A DNA stretch of 64,000 nt from an uncultured Spirochaetota bacterium. Lineage in GTDB: Bacteria; Spirochaetota; Spirochaetia; SZUA-6; Fen-1364. Positions 6,036-17,124 of this stretch are shown piece after piece (the first letter of the stretch is position 1; the number at the start of each line of letters is the position of its first letter). Made by a program: the position numbers and the translations under genes. The stretch lies in assembly GCA_963820525.1 (NCBI GenBank), contig CAWGAA010000001.1, forward strand, positions 96,001 to 160,000. The letters run 5' to 3'. The notes beneath the pieces are model-generated. The model saw nothing but the letters and a program-made list of their open reading frames with translations, did not search any database and had not been told where the DNA came from.

Positions 6036-6138
6036 GGGTTAGCAGTTAATAATGGGTGCCGTCCCCTGTCAATAAGTGGTATACTGGAACTAGCCGGGCC
6101 GCAGGATGGGGCTCGGCTCATGGTGGAAACTCAAGCGG

Positions 6139-6924
6139 ATGCAGGAAAGACCGCGCACGTATATTTTCCATATTTTTCGTGCCGATGGGAAATCGCTCGT
6201 TCTCCATCCCTTCCGCACCCCCGAGAAGCTGACGGCGGCCCTGGAGCAGACCGAGGTAGCCGGTAGGTACGGCGGAGATCCGCACGTGGATGAGCTGCAT
6301 CGGTTGCGAGCGGAGCTCTACGGCCTGATAGACTCCGCCGTGAAGCGACGGCTCGCCGATGTCCGCTTCATCCCGAAGTTCCTCATTTCCTCCGCCGTTT
6401 TTCTGGTTTCCTACTTTTTCTTTTCCTTTGTCGTTCAGGATCCGGTTCCCGTGGTGGATGAGCTCGTGATCTCCATCGCGCTCGCCGTGCTCGCCTATAT
6501 CATCCTGGGCAGGAGGGATGCGCGCTCGGAGGGGGCCGCTCACAGGCGCCTGGGACTCGTCGCGATCGTGGACGGCATTCTGTTCACGGAAAGCGAGTTC
6601 GTGAAGAGGGCGGAGGCCACTCTTCACGTGAACGAATCCCGTGGGATCGGCGAGATGCTGCGGGAGATCATCACCCCCTCCCTGCAGGAGCTGGGCGAGG
6701 AGGAGAGGGAAGAGGCCGTACAGTTCCTGGCGCTCCTGGAGGGAAGGTTCGATTCGCGGAGGCTCAAGCGCGAGGAGAGGCTGTTGAAGAGGCTCGCCGC
6801 AACGCCGGAGGCGCTTCCCGCCGGAGAGAAGCTCGCCAGCCGCGTGAAGCCGCGGGATTTCGATTTTCCCCTCTACGCGGTGTACAAGAGCCTCAAGCGC
6901 AGCGTCATGGACCGGAAATCTTAA
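6139..6924 (+). CDS. Hypothetical membrane protein (2 TM)
   Basis: Long ORF with hydrophobic hairpin around QDPVPVVDE; extended -10 TGgTATACT at 6077-6085; start uncertain (6106 or 6139). Confidence 0.7.
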   Translation: MQERPRTYIFHIFRADGKSLVLHPFRTPEKLTAALEQTEVAGRYGGDPHVDELHRLRAELYGLIDSAVKRRLADVRFIPKFLISSAVFLVSYFFFSFVVQDPVPVVDELVISIALAVLAYIILGRRDARSEGAAHRRLGLVAIVDGILFTESEFVKRAEATLHVNESRGIGEMLREIITPSLQELGEEEREEAVQFLALLEGRFDSRRLKREERLLKRLAATPEALPAGEKLASRVKPRDFDFPLYAVYKSLKRSVMDRKS

Positions 6925-8044
6925 GCGCGGAGCCCGCGAGACTTTTCAGGCGATCCGCGAGGGATTCCGGCGTGGCGGATGAGAGGGGCTGGTCGTTGAT
7001 GGTCACGTTCGGTGCCTGGGAGCACAATCCCATGCACGGGACGATCTCCAGCGAAAAAAGCCCGTCTGCCGTCGTCTCGCCGGGGCAGAGCTTGAGCACG
7101 CGCGAGATGGTCTCCAGCAGCTCCGCCGACCTTTTCTTTCCGCAGTTCTCGCCCGAGCAGACCTTGATGCGGAAGCGCGCCGGCGGTTCCAGGCGGAACA
7201 CGGGATAGAACGCGATGACCTCCGAGACATGATCTGGCGATACGCCGAGAAAATCGGCGATGTGCTCGATGGCGTCCCGGGGAATATAGCCGAAGCCGGC
7301 TTGAGTCTGCTCGAGGATGGGCACGAGGAGCTCCCGCTTGGGCGGGAAACGGTTGAAGACGTCAATAAGCTCTTGGGGAGGGCTCTTGGCTACGGCGGCG
7401 CCCCGCTCCTTTTCTTCGTGCTTCTGCTTCTTCACGTAATGGGAGAGTATGGCGAGCCCCATTGCGATGTTCTCGTTTCGCACCACCACTTCGGATGGCA
7501 CGGCGAGCTGCGTCGGAGAGAAGTTCCAGATCGCCGTGATGCCCAGGGACACGACCCGGCTCGCCACCTGCTGGGCCGCCTCCTTGGGGACGCAGAGGAT
7601 CGCGATTCCCACGTCGAAGCTGCGTACCACCCGCTGGAGGGATTCCATGGGAAGGATTGTGAAAGCCCCCAGGATGCTCCCCACCTTGGCCGGATCGTTG
7701 TCGAAGACGGCCACCAGGCGCAGGCCGTATTGAGCGAGGCCGGGGTACTGGCTGAGAGCCGAGCCGAGATGGCCCGCGCCGATCAGGATGGCGGTGTTTT
7801 CATAGTTGATGCCGAGGAACTCCTCGATGGCCTTCTTCAGGCCGAGGATCGAGTAGCCCGACTTCGGCTTGCCCTTATAGCCGATGAGAGAGACGTCCTT
7901 GCGCACCTGGGTGTCGTCGATCTGGAAGAATCGCGCCAGCTGCTTCGAGGAGACGTTGGATTCGCCGCGGGCCTGCATCTCGGCGAGGATCTGGTGGTAG
8001 AGGGGGATCCTTCGAAGCGTCTGCTCGGGGATCTGGTGCTCCAT
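6905..8044 (-). CDS. rex: Redox-sensing repressor Rex fused to a C-terminal NuoE/HndA-like [2Fe-2S] domain
   Basis: Rex: IPEQTLRRIPLY, QVRKDVS..G.KGKPKSGY, GAGHLG, IWNFSP. NuoE: GFGYIP, AFYPVF, CSGENC, CMGLCSQAP. Confidence 0.9.
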   Translation of the reverse strand: MEHQIPEQTLRRIPLYHQILAEMQARGESNVSSKQLARFFQIDDTQVRKDVSLIGYKGKPKSGYSILGLKKAIEEFLGINYENTAILIGAGHLGSALSQYPGLAQYGLRLVAVFDNDPAKVGSILGAFTILPMESLQRVVRSFDVGIAILCVPKEAAQQVASRVVSLGITAIWNFSPTQLAVPSEVVVRNENIAMGLAILSHYVKKQKHEEKERGAAVAKSPPQELIDVFNRFPPKRELLVPILEQTQAGFGYIPRDAIEHIADFLGVSPDHVSEVIAFYPVFRLEPPARFRIKVCSGENCGKKRSAELLETISRVLKLCPGETTADGLFSLEIVPCMGLCSQAPNVTINDQPLSSATPESLADRLKSLAGSALKISGP

Positions 8045-8078
8045 CTCACTGGACTTTTTGGATCGATCCGTTGTGCGC

Positions 8079-9317
8079 TTACTGGCTTCCACGGGATTCC
8101 ATCTCGCGCTGGAGGTCTATCGCCTGCTGCACCATGTCGATGCTCTCCCGTGCGGGTGTGTACTTGGGATCTAACGCCAGTACCTGCTTCCAGTATTCAA
8201 TGGCCTTTTCGTAGTGGCCCTGTGCGTATTCCTTCACGCCGGTCCGGTACAGCTCATCTGCCTGGTCCTGGGTTGCCTTCCTGCCGAAGTCTCCGAGGTC
8301 GAATTGGGCCTGCACGCTGAACTTGTCGACGGGGTTGAGCTCTCCGCTCAAGTCCAGATTGTAGTTGACGACGATGCTCATCGTGCCGAACTCCAGGGTG
8401 GTGCCCAGGGCGAGGCGGGGATTGTCCGCCTTGAGCAATATCCCGCTCTGGATGGAGAGGAAACTGGTGACATTGACGTTGGTGCCCACGGCCACATTCC
8501 ACTTCTCGGCGGGAGCGTTCACGGGATCGAAGCTGAAGGGATAGTTGAAGTCGCAGGCAAGCGTCCAGGGGCGCAGGGGGGAATAGGCGAGTCCCGCCGT
8601 GGCCATGAGGGGAAGCTGCTCTCCGGCCAGGCTGGACAGCCCGAGGTTCTTCAGCGTGGCTCCGAGACGGAAGTTGCCATCCAGGGAATGGTAGAACTTC
8701 AGAAAGGGGATGTTGAAGCTGGTCATGAGCCCCAGGTCGGTCATGAACGCCAGAGAGGACTGGTTGGCGGAGAAGACGGCGGGGATGCTCCGGTAGGCCA
8801 CCTTGAGATTTGTCCCCGCGGCCAGCCCGAAGAAATAATAGCTATGGAAGAAGTTATAGGAGATGTTCATGGTGGCGATCGATTCGGTTATATAGCCCTT
8901 CGCTCCCCGTTCGCCCCAGTCGTTGTACGCCGTGAAGGGAACATAGAGGAACTTGCCGCCGAATCCTATGCCCAGGTCATTGAAGCGGACCGTGTAGACG
9001 ACGCCTTCGAGGTTCGAGTCCGCGATCCAGTTGTGGTGGTAGAAAGCGAGCTCGGTCTGGCTCAGCAGAGAGCTGGCCGAGGGGTTGCTCTCGATGAACC
9101 CGCTGTCCAGCGCCATGGCCGTGTACGCGGTTCCCATCCCTTCGTACCTGCCGCCCATGGGGATGAGAAGGGTGGGGAAGATCGTCAGCCCGGTGTTTGG
9201 ATCGGCGAACTGGGAAAAGGCGCCCGACCAGCCCGAATACAGGTCATTATTGTCGGCCCAGACGGGGCCGCAGCCGATGAGAAGACAGAGCGCGATAAGA
9301 AACGCCTTGCCCTTCAT
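8079..9317 (-). CDS. UPF0164 family (FadL-like) outer-membrane protein with C-terminal TPR
   Basis: Signal peptide; DPNTGLTIFPTLLIPMGG..EGMGTAYTA, NPSASS, HHNWIADS; C-terminal TPR (YEKAIEYWKQVLALDP). Confidence 0.8.
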   Translation of the reverse strand: MKGKAFLIALCLLIGCGPVWADNNDLYSGWSGAFSQFADPNTGLTIFPTLLIPMGGRYEGMGTAYTAMALDSGFIESNPSASSLLSQTELAFYHHNWIADSNLEGVVYTVRFNDLGIGFGGKFLYVPFTAYNDWGERGAKGYITESIATMNISYNFFHSYYFFGLAAGTNLKVAYRSIPAVFSANQSSLAFMTDLGLMTSFNIPFLKFYHSLDGNFRLGATLKNLGLSSLAGEQLPLMATAGLAYSPLRPWTLACDFNYPFSFDPVNAPAEKWNVAVGTNVNVTSFLSIQSGILLKADNPRLALGTTLEFGTMSIVVNYNLDLSGELNPVDKFSVQAQFDLGDFGRKATQDQADELYRTGVKEYAQGHYEKAIEYWKQVLALDPKYTPARESIDMVQQAIDLQREMESRGSQ

Positions 9318-9427
9318 ACTACGCATATTATACAACCTTTTATCGGTTTATTCCATGGTATGCGCCGGGGCGCCGGTGACCAAACTCCACTTTTCGTCGA
9401 TAATAGAAGATGTGGGAGCACGCGACC

Positions 9428-12400: not shown

Positions 12401-12463
12401 AACGCGAACTATCCGCCCCTCGTGGACCTCGTGATAAAGATCAACAGGGCGCTGGGGATATGA
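9428..12463 (+). CDS. Large exported alpha-helical/TPR-like protein
   Basis: About 1000 aa with signal peptide and TPR-like repeats (ALQLLDKALDANPNNENA); stop overlaps next gene. Confidence 0.75.
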   Translation: MRPLKGAITALVLCLGLIGAAPSFASGAQENRLGEARRLIQEKSYDEALLLLANIEAANPDLRDETRALIFQIMDIRRRYNAEYEKLIDVLNQMDLEKGLAIINELEALDPHPNPAMMSSIEQAKRGAENVFNAIHFRDIMDSAYKLIAQKKYAEALAAYLQPIENFNTIGFNLHRDTFLAAGYGDITVKNVLNTVGRISELAQGARAAAQDVVSAAAAAEALAGSKSVSGDEVPRFEGSLAVLQNMVDREAGLRSAVSALDTAGTAIQQKSADNRGDLYIQYMMRLNEGRKDREEGIVYAVHAIWYDAAQSLARATAADLSAAFEGAAKLLDGGQYALAVTALDDIPNRSLLAVKAASLQSAALRPQAGWRFTLQDGATLKELAGEAASFQMMAAESRAMQILARYRIELATIPPADGLSYRQLLDFRAVLKARFEAADSLRREWQAAGQSYGQQARFILSLGRLVSSAQDMADRFASFLKDLQGLDLGYAVRIAQQDSAGYPARLAMAKNLRVQASDDMEGTKNGLPTGAEIIYKYPSKALQVLDAADGYLRQLTGDIDQYQTSWKSEQPYVSTSPRVTSLLAAAAEVSKQAGQERELVAALARKAQDQHTRALEQKKLGDQSFANAVSLSKTDPERAVDLLTKAIDAYGTSLQFEEDEAIRKRIETNGEIARLQTQISLSLNTRIVTDVEQLITDGIKLISSGDYLRANQKFTQADERWKEKHPGEMYSSVLSYYLDLSRSALTVSGSREILPTDPSYDVVSSYINLANQSYLSAAALLAAGRKADAGQALANAKRNVDAVLSLFPNYRVARILALKILNRSDEKAFPVQLQAQIAQYTQEMKSGKISKREAYLGLKDIQEFRPDDRALAATLSQLEIDIGLRAKPISPEQIRESNQAYQQAVDMYRANQPETYQPALQLLDKALDANPNNENARKQRTAILLRSGSPVQGAISSTALAEYLKAKELLNSGSVAEAKVIVDRLRQDPRNANYPPLVDLVIKINRALGI

Positions 12464-15400
12464 TGGGGAGAAATACGGGACGATTCCTTCTGCTGATGCT
12501 CATCACCGCCGCCGGCGCGGCGTACACCCAGGAGCTCTATTGGGAGAACCCGGAGGTGATCATGGCCCAGGGAGTGCGCTTCTCCCAGTCGGCAACGGGG
12601 GGAGGGCTGATCGTGGTGAGCTGGCAGGAGCTCGTCACCCGGGCCAATGGCCAGGGTGACATCTTCCTGTCGCTGGCAGTTTCCAGCGACGGCCAGAACT
12701 GGACCAGGCACGAACGGTTCTACGGCCCGGTTCCCTACAGCGAGCCGGATCCCACTCTCCACCCGCCGGTCTACTCCATGATCGTGGATTCCAAAAGACG
12801 GATCTCCATGGCGGTGGCGGTCGCGGAGAGGGTCACGGCGATCATTGTCTCCGATGACGACGGAAAGAGCTTCCGCGAGGTGGCGCGGCTGGAGTCCCAG
12901 TTTCCCACTGTCACTCCCGGCATCTTCGCCTCCGCGCGAGGCGGATACCTGCTCTTCGTCACCCAATCCCGGGCAAACCCGCAGGGGGCGGGGACCGCCG
13001 GAGAATACCTCTCCATCTACTCCAGCGTCTCGCGCGACGGGGAGAGCTGGTCCGCCTTCTCCCCCTTCATCTCGGAAGAGGAGCTTCGATACAACTTCTC
13101 CCCCCAGCATTCCGCCTTCCATGGAAAGGACTTCGTCGTCTTTCAGTCCCGAAGCGAAAAGGACACCTTCCAGCTCTACCTGAAGGTCAGCTCCGACGGG
13201 GGCAGGACCTGGGGAGCTGCCCGGACGGTCACGCGCCTGCCCGTCTTTGCCGAGCCGCAGGCGGGAAAAGCGCGGGATGCGGTGGAGTACACCAATCAGA
13301 GGCCGAGCCTGTATCCCGTGGGAGCCAGCCTGGGCCTGGTGTGGGAGCGAAACCTCCCGGGCTCCCGCGCCCAGCTCTACTACTGCGAGCTTGCAGACTC
13401 GGGCGACATCGCCCTTCCCCCGCAGAAGGTCGCCTCGACACCGGAGAGCATATACGGTCAGATACTGACCTACCGGGGCGCGCTGTACGTGCTGTACTCG
13501 GACGTCTCCCTGGCCGCTTCGCGCATCACCCTCGCGCACAAGGGGGCCATCTGGGACACGCAGCTGTTGAGCAGGGGCGTCACCGGCGCCTCCAGCAATC
13601 CCCATGCCGTGACGTTCGGCGACAAGATGCTGGTGTTCTGGGAAACCATCGGCGCTACCGGTTCCTCCCTCCTGGAGGTCCGCCCTGTCACCCATGTGGA
13701 TCCGCCGAAGCTCATTGCCGTGGACTTCGTCCCGGGAAAGAGGCTGAACCGCTCCGCCGTCTCGGTGAGGTGGGACGATCCCCCCGATCCCGCCGGCATC
13801 AAGACATACCACTATACATGGAGCGTCGACGGCGTGCCGAAGGTGCAGCAGGATGTGGCGCTGTCCAGACCGTTGGTGGCGCTGCCTTCCGCGATCGACG
13901 GCGCATGGGAGCTTTCGGTCACCGCGGAGGATTTCGCGGGAAACGTCTCACCAATGGCCAAAATCGGGTACGTGCGGGATACAACCCCGCCGGAGCCCGT
14001 TGCCATCGACCCTCCGGCCACCGATGCGAACGGGTTTCTCGCATCCAATACCTTCTCCCTTTCCTGGCGGCCTCCGGCAAAAGAGGAAATCACGGGCTAC
14101 CGCTACGGGATATCCTTCATCGGGGAGATCCCCCGGGAGGCGGCCGGAGAGCTGCCGTCCGCGCCCTCTGTCGTCCAGGGAAAGGAAACGGCGGCCCCCA
14201 CGGCGTCTTTCGACGATATCGACGACGGGGCCTGGGCCTTTTCAGTCTCCGCCGTGGACTCCGCGGGAAACATCGGCAAGCCCGCCACGGTCTTGCTCAA
14301 GCTGGACAAATTCGTTCCCTACACCGCTGTATACACGGTGGCAAAAAAGACCGACGAGTTCGGCAATGTCACCCTCTCCATCAGCGGGAGAGGCTTCGAC
14401 ACCGGGGGGACGGTCGAAAAGATCTTCCTCAGCGAGGACGGCAAGCCGCCCTACGAATACGAGTTCCTCCGCTCGCGCGGCGACTTCACCGTGATGAGCG
14501 ACAGGCTGATCACGGGGCCGCGGCTGACCTCCGAGACGAAGTCGGGCAACTACGTCCTGGCGCTTTTCCATCCCGTGCGGTTGACCACGGTCTGGAAGGG
14601 CGGCCTCATCAGCTTCGAGGCCCCCGGCACCATCAAGATCGGGAACTTCAGCATCCGCTACCTGCCGGGCTGGGTGGCGGACAGGGTGCCTCTCTACACG
14701 ATCCCCGCCAGCCAGGTGGTGGTGGTGGTCGTCGTTCTGTTCATCGCCGTGCTTATCGTGCTGTCCGCCCGCAAAATGGTCGTGCTCCTGGGCGAGGGGG
14801 CGATGCTGCGCGAAGAGGTCACGGCTCTCATCGAAGGAAGGCCCTCCTCCAGGTGGGAGGAAAGGAACCGGAAAATGCATGAATTGCAGAGACGGGGAGC
14901 GGGTCTGCGCCTCAAGTACACCCTCCTCATGATCGTGCTCGTCATCCTCATCGTCCTCATCGTGTCGGTGCCTCTGAGCTTCCAGATGATCGGGCAGCAG
15001 AGGACCACCCTCGCCAACGGCCTCCGGCAGCGTTCCGAGATCCTCGTCGGGAGCCTCGCCTCCAGCGCGGAGAACCTCCTGCGTCTGGCAACGCCAGCCT
15101 ACGAGGACATGCGCCTGGTTCCGAACAACACGAGGGCCATGGCGGATGCGCTCTGGGCAACGGTCACCGGCCCGGGAGATACTGACAAGGCATTCAAGGA
15201 CTACGTGTGGGCTACAAACGACCCCCAGTGGATCAAGACCCATCCCGGCTACAACCCCGCAACGGAGAAGGCTTCCGACGACATCGGCGGCATCATCCCT
15301 GCGATCGTGGAGAGCCTCGAGGCGGACGGCCGACGCCAGATCGAGCCCCTTATCAAGGCAAACGACGCGTTCCTCCTTCGCTATAACGATCTTTCACAGA

Positions 15401-17124
15401 AGACGGACAAGAAATCCGCGGAAGATGCGCTGGCCGCCTTGAACGTGTACACCAGGGGACAGAGGGAGATCGACACCCAGTTTAAAACGAACGAGTCCTT
15501 CGCATGGGTTCACTCGAGCCCCGATTTCAGGACGGAGTCCCTCCCGCCCACCTTCGTCTTCTACAAGCCCATCGTGTACTTCAGCCGGGCCAAGGACGCC
15601 CAGGGCAAGTTCCTCAAGGACGATACGGGCAGCTATATCTACTCCTACTTCCAGGGAATGGTGCGCCTGGCGGTTTCCACCAAGCTCATCAACCTCCAGA
15701 TCCTGGAGGCACGCAACACCCTCATCCGGATCACGGGATTGATCTCGCTGCTCGCCATTGCCCTGGGAGTGCTCGGCGCGATCCTCCTGGCGAGCATCAC
15801 GGTCACTCCGATAAAGAAGCTGGCCGCAGGAGTGGCGATCATCAGGGACACGGAGGACAAGGAGGAGCTGAAGAGCCACACCATCGAGGTGCGCACGAGA
15901 GACGAGATCGGCATGCTCGCCGACACGGTGAACGACATGACCAAGGGTCTCGTGAAAGCGGCCATCGCGAACAAGGAGCTGATGGTGGGCAAGGACGTCC
16001 AGAAGATGTTCCTTCCCCTGGAGAAGGACAGCACGACGGGAGGCGAGGAGACGGCGCTCCTGGAAATCTATGGGTATTACGAGGGGCAAAAGGGGGTTTC
16101 AGGGGATTATTTCGACTTTAAGAAGCTCGACGATACACACTACGCCATCATCAAGTGCGACGTAGCAGGGCATGGAGTCCCGGCAGCCCTCATCATGGTG
16201 GAGGTCGCCACGCTGTTCATAAGCTATTTCCGCGACTGGGTGAAGAGGAAGGACGCCCTCGCCCACGTGAAGGATCCCACCGAACGCCTGAGGCTGCAAA
16301 AGGAGTTGGAGAGGGTCGACACACTGGTGTACACGATCAACGATATGATCGAGGAGCGGGGCTTCAAAGGGCGGTTCGCCGCGCTTACGATCTGCCTTTT
16401 CAACGCCGAGACGGGCGCCGCCACTGTCTGCAATGCGGGTGACCGCCTCATGCACATTTACGACGCCGACCAGCGCAAGATGGTCAATATAGAGCTCCCC
16501 GACGCTCCCGCCGCCGGTGTCTTCCCCTCGATGCTGTTCGATATGAAAAGAGGTTTCCGGCAGATCACCCAGAAGCTCGATCCTGGGGACGTGATTTTCC
16601 TGTACACCGACGGTTTCGATGAGGCAAAGCGCTTTTTCAGAAACGAAAGCTACGAGATCGTGAGCTGCGACGAGCCGGGCTTGAAGGAGGGAGAAATTCA
16701 CCTTGGGACGCACTCCAAGGGACAGAACAGTGAGGAGTTCGGCAGTCCACGAATGGAAAGCGTGATCGATGCAGTTTTCAACAGCGGCCGCTACAGCCTC
16801 GTCAGGCATCATTCGCCTACGCCGAGCGAAGAGCTCGTCTTCGACTTCTCAACCTGCCAGGGCACGGTGAAAGAGGCCGTGCTGGCTCTGGTGGCCGTGG
16901 AAAGGGTCTTCCGCGCGTATCGAGATCCCGCGGCCGATGCCAACAGCAGGATAATCGTCGATTCGAATGTGGATGCTTTCCTCAAGGACCACTTCCTCCA
17001 GTATTCCGCGTACTTTACCCACCGTCTGGATGGACAGGGGGTTGGAAGCGCGATCACGTTCACTCACCTGCACGAGGACGAGCAGTCCGACGATCTCACG
17101 ATGCTGGTGCTCAGGAAGAAGTGA
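12460..17124 (+). CDS. Membrane sensor phosphatase: Asp-box propeller + Fn3/Ig domains, 3 TM, HAMP, SpoIIE/PP2C (TP0854-like)
   Basis: Asp boxes SSDGQNW, SDDDGKSF, SRDGESW, SSDGGRTW; HAMP RDEIGMLADTVNDM; PP2C motifs VSGDYFD, CDVAGHGVPAAL, LYTDG, DDLTML. Confidence 0.88.
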   Translation: MMGRNTGRFLLLMLITAAGAAYTQELYWENPEVIMAQGVRFSQSATGGGLIVVSWQELVTRANGQGDIFLSLAVSSDGQNWTRHERFYGPVPYSEPDPTLHPPVYSMIVDSKRRISMAVAVAERVTAIIVSDDDGKSFREVARLESQFPTVTPGIFASARGGYLLFVTQSRANPQGAGTAGEYLSIYSSVSRDGESWSAFSPFISEEELRYNFSPQHSAFHGKDFVVFQSRSEKDTFQLYLKVSSDGGRTWGAARTVTRLPVFAEPQAGKARDAVEYTNQRPSLYPVGASLGLVWERNLPGSRAQLYYCELADSGDIALPPQKVASTPESIYGQILTYRGALYVLYSDVSLAASRITLAHKGAIWDTQLLSRGVTGASSNPHAVTFGDKMLVFWETIGATGSSLLEVRPVTHVDPPKLIAVDFVPGKRLNRSAVSVRWDDPPDPAGIKTYHYTWSVDGVPKVQQDVALSRPLVALPSAIDGAWELSVTAEDFAGNVSPMAKIGYVRDTTPPEPVAIDPPATDANGFLASNTFSLSWRPPAKEEITGYRYGISFIGEIPREAAGELPSAPSVVQGKETAAPTASFDDIDDGAWAFSVSAVDSAGNIGKPATVLLKLDKFVPYTAVYTVAKKTDEFGNVTLSISGRGFDTGGTVEKIFLSEDGKPPYEYEFLRSRGDFTVMSDRLITGPRLTSETKSGNYVLALFHPVRLTTVWKGGLISFEAPGTIKIGNFSIRYLPGWVADRVPLYTIPASQVVVVVVVLFIAVLIVLSARKMVVLLGEGAMLREEVTALIEGRPSSRWEERNRKMHELQRRGAGLRLKYTLLMIVLVILIVLIVSVPLSFQMIGQQRTTLANGLRQRSEILVGSLASSAENLLRLATPAYEDMRLVPNNTRAMADALWATVTGPGDTDKAFKDYVWATNDPQWIKTHPGYNPATEKASDDIGGIIPAIVESLEADGRRQIEPLIKANDAFLLRYNDLSQKTDKKSAEDALAALNVYTRGQREIDTQFKTNESFAWVHSSPDFRTESLPPTFVFYKPIVYFSRAKDAQGKFLKDDTGSYIYSYFQGMVRLAVSTKLINLQILEARNTLIRITGLISLLAIALGVLGAILLASITVTPIKKLAAGVAIIRDTEDKEELKSHTIEVRTRDEIGMLADTVNDMTKGLVKAAIANKELMVGKDVQKMFLPLEKDSTTGGEETALLEIYGYYEGQKGVSGDYFDFKKLDDTHYAIIKCDVAGHGVPAALIMVEVATLFISYFRDWVKRKDALAHVKDPTERLRLQKELERVDTLVYTINDMIEERGFKGRFAALTICLFNAETGAATVCNAGDRLMHIYDADQRKMVNIELPDAPAAGVFPSMLFDMKRGFRQITQKLDPGDVIFLYTDGFDEAKRFFRNESYEIVSCDEPGLKEGEIHLGTHSKGQNSEEFGSPRMESVIDAVFNSGRYSLVRHHSPTPSEELVFDFSTCQGTVKEAVLALVAVERVFRAYRDPAADANSRIIVDSNVDAFLKDHFLQYSAYFTHRLDGQGVGSAITFTHLHEDEQSDDLTMLVLRKK

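Follow-up and report, generated by a model that had tools for sequence, protein, structure and literature searches.

A Rex-family repressor fused to a HydC-like [2Fe-2S] module in spirochaetes, a candidate for a second redox input

Rex is the textbook sensor of the NADH/NAD+ ratio in anaerobes and, to our knowledge, all the forms studied respond to this single input. Rex structures have been solved for Thermus aquaticus (1xcb/3ikt), B. subtilis (2vt2), T. maritima (5zz5/7wb3) and Thermoanaerobacter (RSP, 3wg9). Modules of the NuoE/HydC family are normally docked on a flavoprotein of the NuoF/HydB type. A study of Caldicellulosiruptor bescii reports that Rex represses [FeFe] and [NiFe] hydrogenase genes and documents its operator consensus (PMC6391272); the consensus is also given for S. 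aureus in a second paper (PMC2883068). Here we describe a gene in which a complete Rex is followed, in the same frame, by a linker and a complete NuoE/HydC-type [2Fe-2S] module. It lies in a 64-kb stretch of DNA (the window, C1:96001-160000) from the genome of an uncultured Spirochaetota bacterium (G000; 5.05 Mb, 4 contigs, 96.7% complete).

A complete Rex joined to a complete NuoE/HydC-type module

The gene occupies a minus-strand open frame at 6905..8092. With the ATG at 8044 as start, the protein has 379 amino acids (aa); an alternative GTG start at 8092 would bring it to 395 aa, 16 more, and would make the gene overlap its upstream neighbour. Pfam and NCBIfam searches confirmed what an initial annotation, made from the sequence, had described: a single uninterrupted frame with full Rex, a linker and a complete NuoE-type module. 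Its positions for the four cysteine codons (7159/7144/7036/7024) were also right. Database entry P0001 is identical to the predicted protein.

The order PF06971 then PF02629, together with a match to the Rex equivalog NF003994 over the first 211 residues (245.1 bits, cut-off 130), places the N-terminal half in the Rex family. Over residues 4-212 the protein can be aligned with Thermus Rex (1xcb) from end to end, at an E-value of 4e-35. In this alignment the recognition-helix motif QVRKD is the same in both proteins, GAGHLG (residues 89-94, at 7780-7763) faces GMGRLG, and FDNDP faces FDVDP. Residues F114 and D115 of the FDxDP motif are invariant across 36 fusions. From the literature on Rex structures, GxGxxG and the acidic residue of FDxDP presumably bind NAD(H), and we take the helix at residues 193-208 to be the domain-swapped helix of the solved dimers.

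The C-terminal part scores 131.5 bits against PF01257, where the cut-off is 24.8, and the match takes in positions 4-144 of the 145 in the profile. This part comprises an N-terminal helical bundle and a thioredoxin-like fold. The cluster cysteines are C296 (7157-7159), C301 (7142-7144), C337 (7034-7036) and C341 (7022-7024), with the spacing C-x4-C-x35-C-x3-C. The full-length domain and the four-cysteine motif make it a member of the NuoE/HydC family (PF01257). Residues 231-371 align with NfnC (9n5u), Aquifex NuoE (6hl2) and HydC (8a6t, 7p5h) in a search of PDB sequences. All the NuoE, HoxE and FdsG equivalogs of NCBIfam match this tail, including the PRK07539 type, each under its own cut-off (TIGR01958, NuoE: 108.6 bits against 142.4). 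By curated cut-off the module is thus outside the NuoE subunits of complex I, and its gene context is not that of the HydC of HydABC, with no hydB (PF01512) in the window and no hydA (PF02906) in the genome. The remark that no nuoF/hydB partner lies nearby was likewise correct: Complex1_51K (PF01512) has no match within the 64-kb window.

An AlphaFold2 (AF2) model, built on an alignment of 36 fusions, has a mean predicted local distance difference test score (pLDDT) of 79.7 and a predicted template modelling score (pTM) of 0.39, and residues 205-219 fall below a pLDDT of 50. In the model, two well-folded halves are connected by a flexible linker and take up no fixed orientation towards each other. 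Foldseek matched the halves separately, the first to Rex structures over ~205 columns and the second to NfnC/HydC/NuoE chains over ~146-156 columns (TMt ~0.6 for 9n5u_C and 7p5h_C). Prediction of the fusion as a homodimer of two copies gave no answer (scores 0.06 and 0.11), and nothing is drawn from it.

The frame is not an artefact. Contigs from 4 public runs, among which the source sample may be, cover 7380-7450 with neither an indel nor a stop. They show one variant, 7410 T>C, which changes a Lys to Arg and AAGGAG to AGGGAG. The same unbroken frame is present in 19 loci of other genomes. At least 120 of the best database clusters carry PF02629 with PF01257: all of the best 120 do, 119 of them also have PF06971, they share 69-100% identity with the window protein, and most are 380-410 aa long. 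These observations, and the purifying selection described below, exclude both a pseudogene and a false join of two genes through an error of assembly or sequencing; we give such an origin virtually no chance, and we found no support for it beyond the AAGGAG in the linker. Databases already contain these proteins under the plain name of Rex ("Rex [Spirochaetia bacterium]" where a source name is given). In line with the initial annotation, whose author was aware of no characterised example of this architecture, we found no paper on a Rex-NuoE or Rex-HydC fusion, in a search from which subscription journals were mostly out of reach.

The AAGGAG at 7411-7406 is where the initial annotation had placed it, and no in-frame ATG, GTG or TTG lies behind it. 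Its reading as a relic of a Shine-Dalgarno sequence is not supported. Of the 20 spirochaete fusions examined, 6 have AAGGAG in their linker DNA. In each it encodes Lys-Glu (AAG GAG); the offset is 33 in the window and 24 in the remaining five. Other strains of the same species have AGGGAG at this site, and none of the 20 fusions examined has a Met at the junction.

Conservation of the module was analyzed in 140 fusion sequences. C296 and C301 are Cys in 140/140, C337 is Cys in 137/140 (3 Ser) and C341 in 134/140 (4 His, 2 Ser), so that all four ligands are Cys in 131/140 while the other 9 carry Ser or His at one ligand. Column conservation was taken as the mean share of the commonest residue per column, and the ratio of nonsynonymous to synonymous divergence (dN/dS) as the median over 68-91 pairs among 14 sequences of family f1, the window's own family. 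The Rex part shows a conservation of 0.93-0.955 and a dN/dS of 0.031, the linker 0.65 and 0.286, and the module 0.73 and 0.192; dS is 1.1-1.35, near saturation, and these ratios are rough. The module is thus under purifying selection, with a constraint about six times weaker than that of Rex.

Coordinates of the fusion gene, its parts, its neighbours and the NuoF-type matches of the genome (window positions unless a contig is named)
Feature	Position	Strand	Basis or remark
Rex-NuoE/HydC-like fusion coding sequence	6905..8044	-	379 aa from ATG 8044; stop TGA 6905-6907
Rex winged-helix DNA-binding domain, residues 4-52	7889..8035	-	Put_DNA-bind_N PF06971, E 2.1e-16, 60.2 bits (cut-off 27)
Rossmann NAD(H)-binding domain, residues 82-177	7514..7801	-	CoA_binding PF02629, 57.2 bits (cut-off 22.3)
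Rex C-terminal helix, residues 193-208	7421..7468	-	AF2 helix; C-terminus alignment
Lys/Glu/Ala-rich linker, residues 209-228 (~20 residues)	7361..7420	-	predicted disorder 205-219
NuoE/HydC-type thioredoxin-like [2Fe-2S] module, residues 229-369	6938..7360	-	2Fe-2S_thioredx PF01257, E 2.7e-38
UPF0164-family protein with TPR tail, upstream neighbour	8079..9335	-	35 nt from rex ATG; Pfam
Convergent downstream open reading frame (ORF), 272 aa, no Pfam family	6106..6924	+	20-nt overlap with fusion 3' end
PF01512 matches in G000	C1:428854, 472182, 839645, 1749197; C3:776698, 776850, 1054495		profile search of genome

The UPF0164 gene is a conserved syntenic partner of rex in fused and unfused relatives (L046, L047, L049), and in Rex-only relatives rex is followed by convergent genes of 259-267 aa. 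A gene for a 1017-aa protein without a Pfam family is divergent from the UPF0164-rex pair; it is followed, at 12460-17124 on the plus strand, by one for a protein of 1554 aa that combines BNR-like, Ig-like, HAMP and SpoIIE (PP2C phosphatase) domains.

Origin of the fusion and its recurrence in other lineages

The order was searched in 92 genomes including G000. In family f1, 21 of the 24 other genomes match at E <= 1e-40, with 15 full-length loci, and family f63 gave 4 full-length matches in 5 genomes (61-63% identity). In families f60, f58 and f59 Rex occurs without the module, with 57-71% identity over residues 4-210, and families f57 and f62 gave no match at 1e-40. A sample of 300 other genomes across the phylum yielded plain Rex and no full-length match to the fusion. 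Two f1 matches are odd: one, 47% identical over residues 2-374, lies inside a 946-aa frame with one TGA (G350:C15:646375-647505), and the other, in a 522-aa frame, extends over no more than residues 1-219 (G373:C186:30247-30900). They may be variant architectures or assembly problems.

In the Rex-domain tree the spirochaete fusions form one clade (97 in the Shimodaira-Hasegawa-like approximate likelihood ratio test, SH-aLRT), nested in a clade (SH-aLRT 99) that otherwise consists of Rex-only proteins of the same order. The fused domains likewise group as one clade (100/99) in the NuoE-domain tree, where their stem measures 1.27 substitutions per site. One clade in both trees indicates a single fusion event, which we place in the common ancestor of f1 and f63.

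The window and three Rex-only f60 loci share the gene order large protein, UPF0164, rex and convergent ORF (~260-270 aa), and in these three loci no nuoE gene lies downstream of rex. Rex-only orthologues end 5-13 residues past the C-terminal helix and the motif SHYLKKRK, and the linker of the fusion begins exactly there. The shared synteny without nuoE, and the position of the junction, indicate that the module was joined to a resident rex gene at its native C-terminus.

As to its source, the module is 28-37% identical to the four other NuoE-type sequences of the genome, and a recent duplication of one of these paralogues was ruled out on this ground. Identity to the free HydC of f1 relatives is 36-39%. 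In the NuoE tree the module groups weakly (82/68) with the fused HydC of Candidatus Wallbacteria and the free HydC of spirochaetes. The complex I NuoE and both Bfu-type NuoE of the genome lie elsewhere, in a group of their own (96/96). At 38 positions conserved in free NuoE/HydC and in operon-embedded fused HydC, 25 are kept in the module and 13 are changed. This count was made on a hidden Markov model (HMM) alignment with 13 of the 26 operon-type rows included, where residue numbers run one below those of the protein. Several of the changed positions flank the first cysteine pair, where C-x-G-T-A-C-H-V has become C-x-G-E-x-C-x-[RK]. By these comparisons the added module is HydC-like, fast-evolving and strongly diverged from working HydC subunits.

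Fusions of the same type were sought in 1.84 billion cluster representatives, of which the best 150 matches were considered. Among the matches listed, one distant full fusion lies beyond the window's clade (P0125, 37% identity), and an Omnitrophota Rex carries a partial module (P0157). Starting from P0125, 18 three-domain clusters including itself were recovered (65-100% identity), and the named ones are Candidatus Wallbacteria. Of four more divergent clusters, P0296 and P0297 belong with f63, and P0298 and P0299 form a third lineage, in which a cluster holds a member labelled Lentisphaerae. Both domain trees require at least 3 state changes on well-supported branches, which indicates that Rex-HydC fusion recurred independently in at least 3 lineages. 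The same scan returned tandem Rex-Rex proteins of 394-443 aa (P0123, P0126, P0132 and P0193), each with two PF06971 and two PF02629 stretches, which would be covalent Rex "dimers".

The Wallbacteria-type fusion stands at the head of a hydrogenase operon. HydB starts 63-163 nt past the fusion in 7/7 loci with enough downstream sequence, HydA follows in 6/6, and no separate hydC is found among the called ORFs of L056, L058, L060 and L061. At the junction, GGAGG stands 7-10 nt before an in-frame ATG in 7/7 loci. This looks like the old hydC start, and it may still be in use, in which case both the fusion and free HydC would be made. In the same four loci (L056:8001-13231 for the first) the operon reads hydC-hydB-hydA-response regulator, headed by the fusion. 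Downstream of hydA, L060 (13453-15453) and L061 (10495-12495) encode a 667-aa protein with Fe_hyd_lg_C, HisKA and HATPase_c domains, which adjoins a hybrid kinase and a response regulator and would be a hydrogenase-like histidine kinase.

Searching metagenomes with P0298 returned 80 loci. In 72 of them rex and hydC are separate neighbouring genes and in 2 they are fused in frame; the other 6 lack rex or are cut. In the loci with enough downstream sequence, mostly adjacent genes and not fusions, hydB comes right after in 45/46 and hydA lies within 5 kb in 25/25. This adjacency, with the two in-frame fusions, points to rex|hydC|hydB|hydA as a common gene order from which fusions arise by stop-codon loss; the fusions outside spirochaetes derive from it and were fixed in some lineages. 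The proposal that two neighbouring genes had fused is supported elsewhere, by this adjacency and the GGAGG with ATG of Wallbacteria, and is not supported for the window, whose Rex-only sisters have no nuoE after rex.

Rex boxes and redox enzymes in the genome and its relatives

The canonical operator TTGTGAA-N4-TTCACAA was scanned with at most 1 mismatch in the 92 genomes of the order. By the tool's tally 46 genomes contain a match, and a control with the reversed pattern gave far fewer. We then considered 8 loci of genus g128 (family f1), chosen because each holds a match, so that the count tells the position of the box and not its frequency. In 8/8 of them the box (e.g. TTGTGAATTAGTTCACAA) precedes a hydC-hydB-hydA operon by 28-66 nt, and a second HydA-like gene comes after the operon. 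The rex locus of these organisms encodes the fusion, and the box-bearing operon encodes an ordinary HydC of its own. The regulatory link between Rex and hydrogenase operons, which the initial annotation gave as general background, is thus borne out by the genomes of close relatives. A conserved box of f60 lies between cytochrome-c-like/RnfC-like genes and a gene of unassigned function.

Each of the 24 other genomes of f1 has an [FeFe] hydrogenase. PF02906 was not found in the whole of G000, nor in the fusion-bearing f63 genomes G388 (95% complete), G389 (87%) and G391 (94%). The hydrogenase target is therefore lost in the window genome, and since these genomes still carry the fusion, retention of the module is independent of HydABC.

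The fusion gene is the one PF06971 match of G000 and so encodes its only Rex. The genome further has five PF01257 genes and seven PF01512 matches, of which C3:776698 and 776850 are two frames of one gene. Pfam searches on the surrounding ORFs identified a complete nuo operon, two Rnf complexes, two Bfu-like NuoE + NuoF modules and a Hox-type [NiFe] hydrogenase, in which HoxF carries a NuoE-like domain of its own at the N-terminus. Every NuoF-type gene has its own NuoE, adjacent or fused, and the other two are RnfC-type. Next to one Bfu-like module lies a gene for a GltD-like iron-sulfur flavoprotein of 1186 aa; the NuoF-like gene of this module is split between two frames. We considered the fused module as the missing HoxE of the Hox operon and dropped this specific partner: HoxF orthologues also occur in the Rex-only f60, and many f1 genomes have no match at orthologue level.

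The split Bfu-type NuoF-like gene (C3:776698-777212, L050 ~6988-8467) matches the FMN-domain profile in two frames, which could reflect a frameshift, a sequencing error or a broken gene. The nuo operon (C1:465000-481000, L052) adjoins genes for a UbiE-type methyltransferase and a polyprenyl synthase; this context points to a quinone-linked respiratory chain, alongside the Hox-type hydrogenase and the two Rnf complexes. A perfect palindrome of 7-4-7 layout, ATGGCAATGGTTTGCCAT (C1:1748057, L051:7058-7075), is found ahead of a NuoE/HydB-like operon, just after a promoter-like TTGACA...TATGGTAAT. It has the geometry of a Rex site and is the sole exact copy in the genome, and we do not call it one. 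A second Rex-box-like palindrome, TAGTGATCTATTTCACTA (C1:1901187, L163:4188-4205), with 3 mismatches and the correct spacing, immediately precedes a gene for an ABC-transporter ATPase, which is divergent from an RluA-like pseudouridine synthase gene. When the list of boxes in G000 was extended to 4 mismatches and filtered by local G+C, it contained only noise. Between ~683000 and 825000 on C1, many stretches of low G+C (0.23-0.45, against 0.60 for the genome) with sequences repeated several times look like an AT-rich, repeat-bearing island.

Possible roles of the module and comparison with known systems

Our tentative preference, held at somewhat less than an even chance, is that the tethered [2Fe-2S] module provides a second redox input that acts on the Rex dimer via the linker. 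The fusion would bind Rex boxes as a dimer and leave DNA as NADH rises, like other Rex proteins. The module would follow closely on the helix through which NADH binding is coupled to DNA release, and would add an intramolecular input from the low-potential, ferredoxin-level pool, oxygen or Fe-S status. Its redox or cluster state would alter the seating of the two C-terminal modules against the Rex dimer, and derepression of enzymes that use NADH plus ferredoxin would then depend on both reductants.

Several observations weigh against a second input. Dual sensing, cluster binding and an effect on DNA binding are putative, our best guess from the sequence of the protein and its relatives. AF2 gives no fixed contact between the domains, and the dN/dS values that speak for constraint on the module are rough at such dS. 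In G000, 0 sites match the canonical box within 1 mismatch, and the 9 sites at 2 mismatches (7 distinct sequences) compare with a rough chance estimate of ~16; as these matches stay within chance, we infer DNA binding by the G000 fusion from its relatives. Finally, the fused module of Wallbacteria is apparently the operon's own HydC, which favours docking as the role of the module.

In that alternative, the module binds a flavoprotein of the NuoF/HydB type, which here would be Bfu-like, Hox or complex I, and Rex is thereby tethered, titrated or fed electrons; repression then follows the amount or state of the enzyme and not a free-standing cluster signal. We consider docking rather unlikely, while giving it real weight. 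The module has the full NuoE/HydC fold including the N-terminal helical bundle, it groups, if weakly, with the HydC of [FeFe] HydABC and not with respiratory NuoE, and four NuoF-type modules are present in the genome. However, each NuoF-like gene of G000 is already provided with a NuoE, and the four fusion-bearing genomes without an [FeFe] hydrogenase match keep the module all the same. HoxF orthologues are found with a Rex that has no module (f60), while many f1 genomes lack an orthologue-level match. The 13 changes at 38 family-conserved positions and the long stem branch also argue against docking. The operon context of Wallbacteria, with HydB and HydA behind the fusion and no separate hydC called in the four loci, suits docking, but the internal GGAGG and ATG mean that free HydC may be made there too. 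A passenger is less probable still, and we hold it to be quite unlikely: the module would fold and perhaps bind a cluster with no regulatory role, as a tolerated leftover of stop-codon loss or of 3'-end capture. It could also be kept because its loss destabilises Rex, or serve as a small electron carrier made in step with Rex. The ease with which fusions can arise from rex|hydC adjacency is consistent with this, as are the roughly sixfold faster evolution of the module compared with Rex, the replacement of one ligand in 9/140 and the lack of inter-domain contact in AF2. Against it, the module has been kept across two families despite saturated synonymous divergence, with a dN/dS of 0.19 and intact ligands in 131/140, and no truncated lineage was seen among the fusions. 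It is also kept in genomes that lost hydCBA, and the architecture recurs in at least 3 lineages.

A bolder version of the second-input reading, which we rate as unlikely, is a two-input logic gate. The Rossmann domain would read NADH/NAD+ and the HydC-derived cluster the ferredoxin-level pool, so that genes of enzymes needing both reductants would be released only when both pools are reduced; in Wallbacteria the repressor would be a subunit of the hydrogenase that it controls. Examples would be the genes of confurcating hydrogenases and other Bfu-type enzymes. Rex here carries a metal-cluster module from the very enzyme class that Rex regulates, kept under selection, and through the fusion one could study directly, by experiment, the coordination of the NADH and ferredoxin pools around electron-bifurcating enzymes. 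Its recurrence in at least three lineages, always tied to a rex-hydC neighbourhood, suggests a functional or physical link between Rex and HydC/HydB. If the domain is inert, the case still documents operon neighbours that fused and then drifted apart.

Compared with the Rex-HydC fusions of Wallbacteria and the sporadic ones, on which no paper was found (subscription journals being mostly beyond the reach of the search), the spirochaete proteins have the same three-domain order and a similar length (379-397 aa). The Wallbacteria fusions differ by their independent origin (separate clades in both domain trees), by their place as first gene of a hydC-hydB-hydA operon with GGAGG and an in-frame ATG retained, and by a HydC part that has diverged little from free HydC.

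Like HydC, NuoE, NfnC and HoxE (7p5h_C, 8a6t_C, 6hl2_A, 9n5u_C), the fused module has a full-length PF01257 domain, four ligands, and a helical bundle with a thioredoxin-like fold, and it is placed among HydC-type sequences in the tree. Unlike them, it is no separate subunit and has no NuoF/HydB gene beside it; it falls under the NCBIfam cut-off for NuoE, with its changed family positions and long stem.

Fe-S transcription factors such as SoxR, IscR, NsrR and FNR alter their DNA binding with redox, oxygen or cluster status, through a cluster held in their own fold. In principle the fusion would act in a like manner. It has no homology to them, and here a whole enzyme-subunit module is appended to a regulator that already has a nucleotide sensor. 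With Rex itself, the protein shares the winged helix with QVRKD, the GxGxxG and FDxDP motifs and the C-terminal helix, and the genomes of its relatives carry the canonical operator TTGTGAA-N4-TTCACAA. It departs from Rex systems in that its own genome is without this operator within 1 mismatch. And whereas the Rex proteins solved and studied so far stop at ~205-225 aa, once the C-terminal helix is complete, the fusion continues for another 170 residues of linker and Fe-S module.

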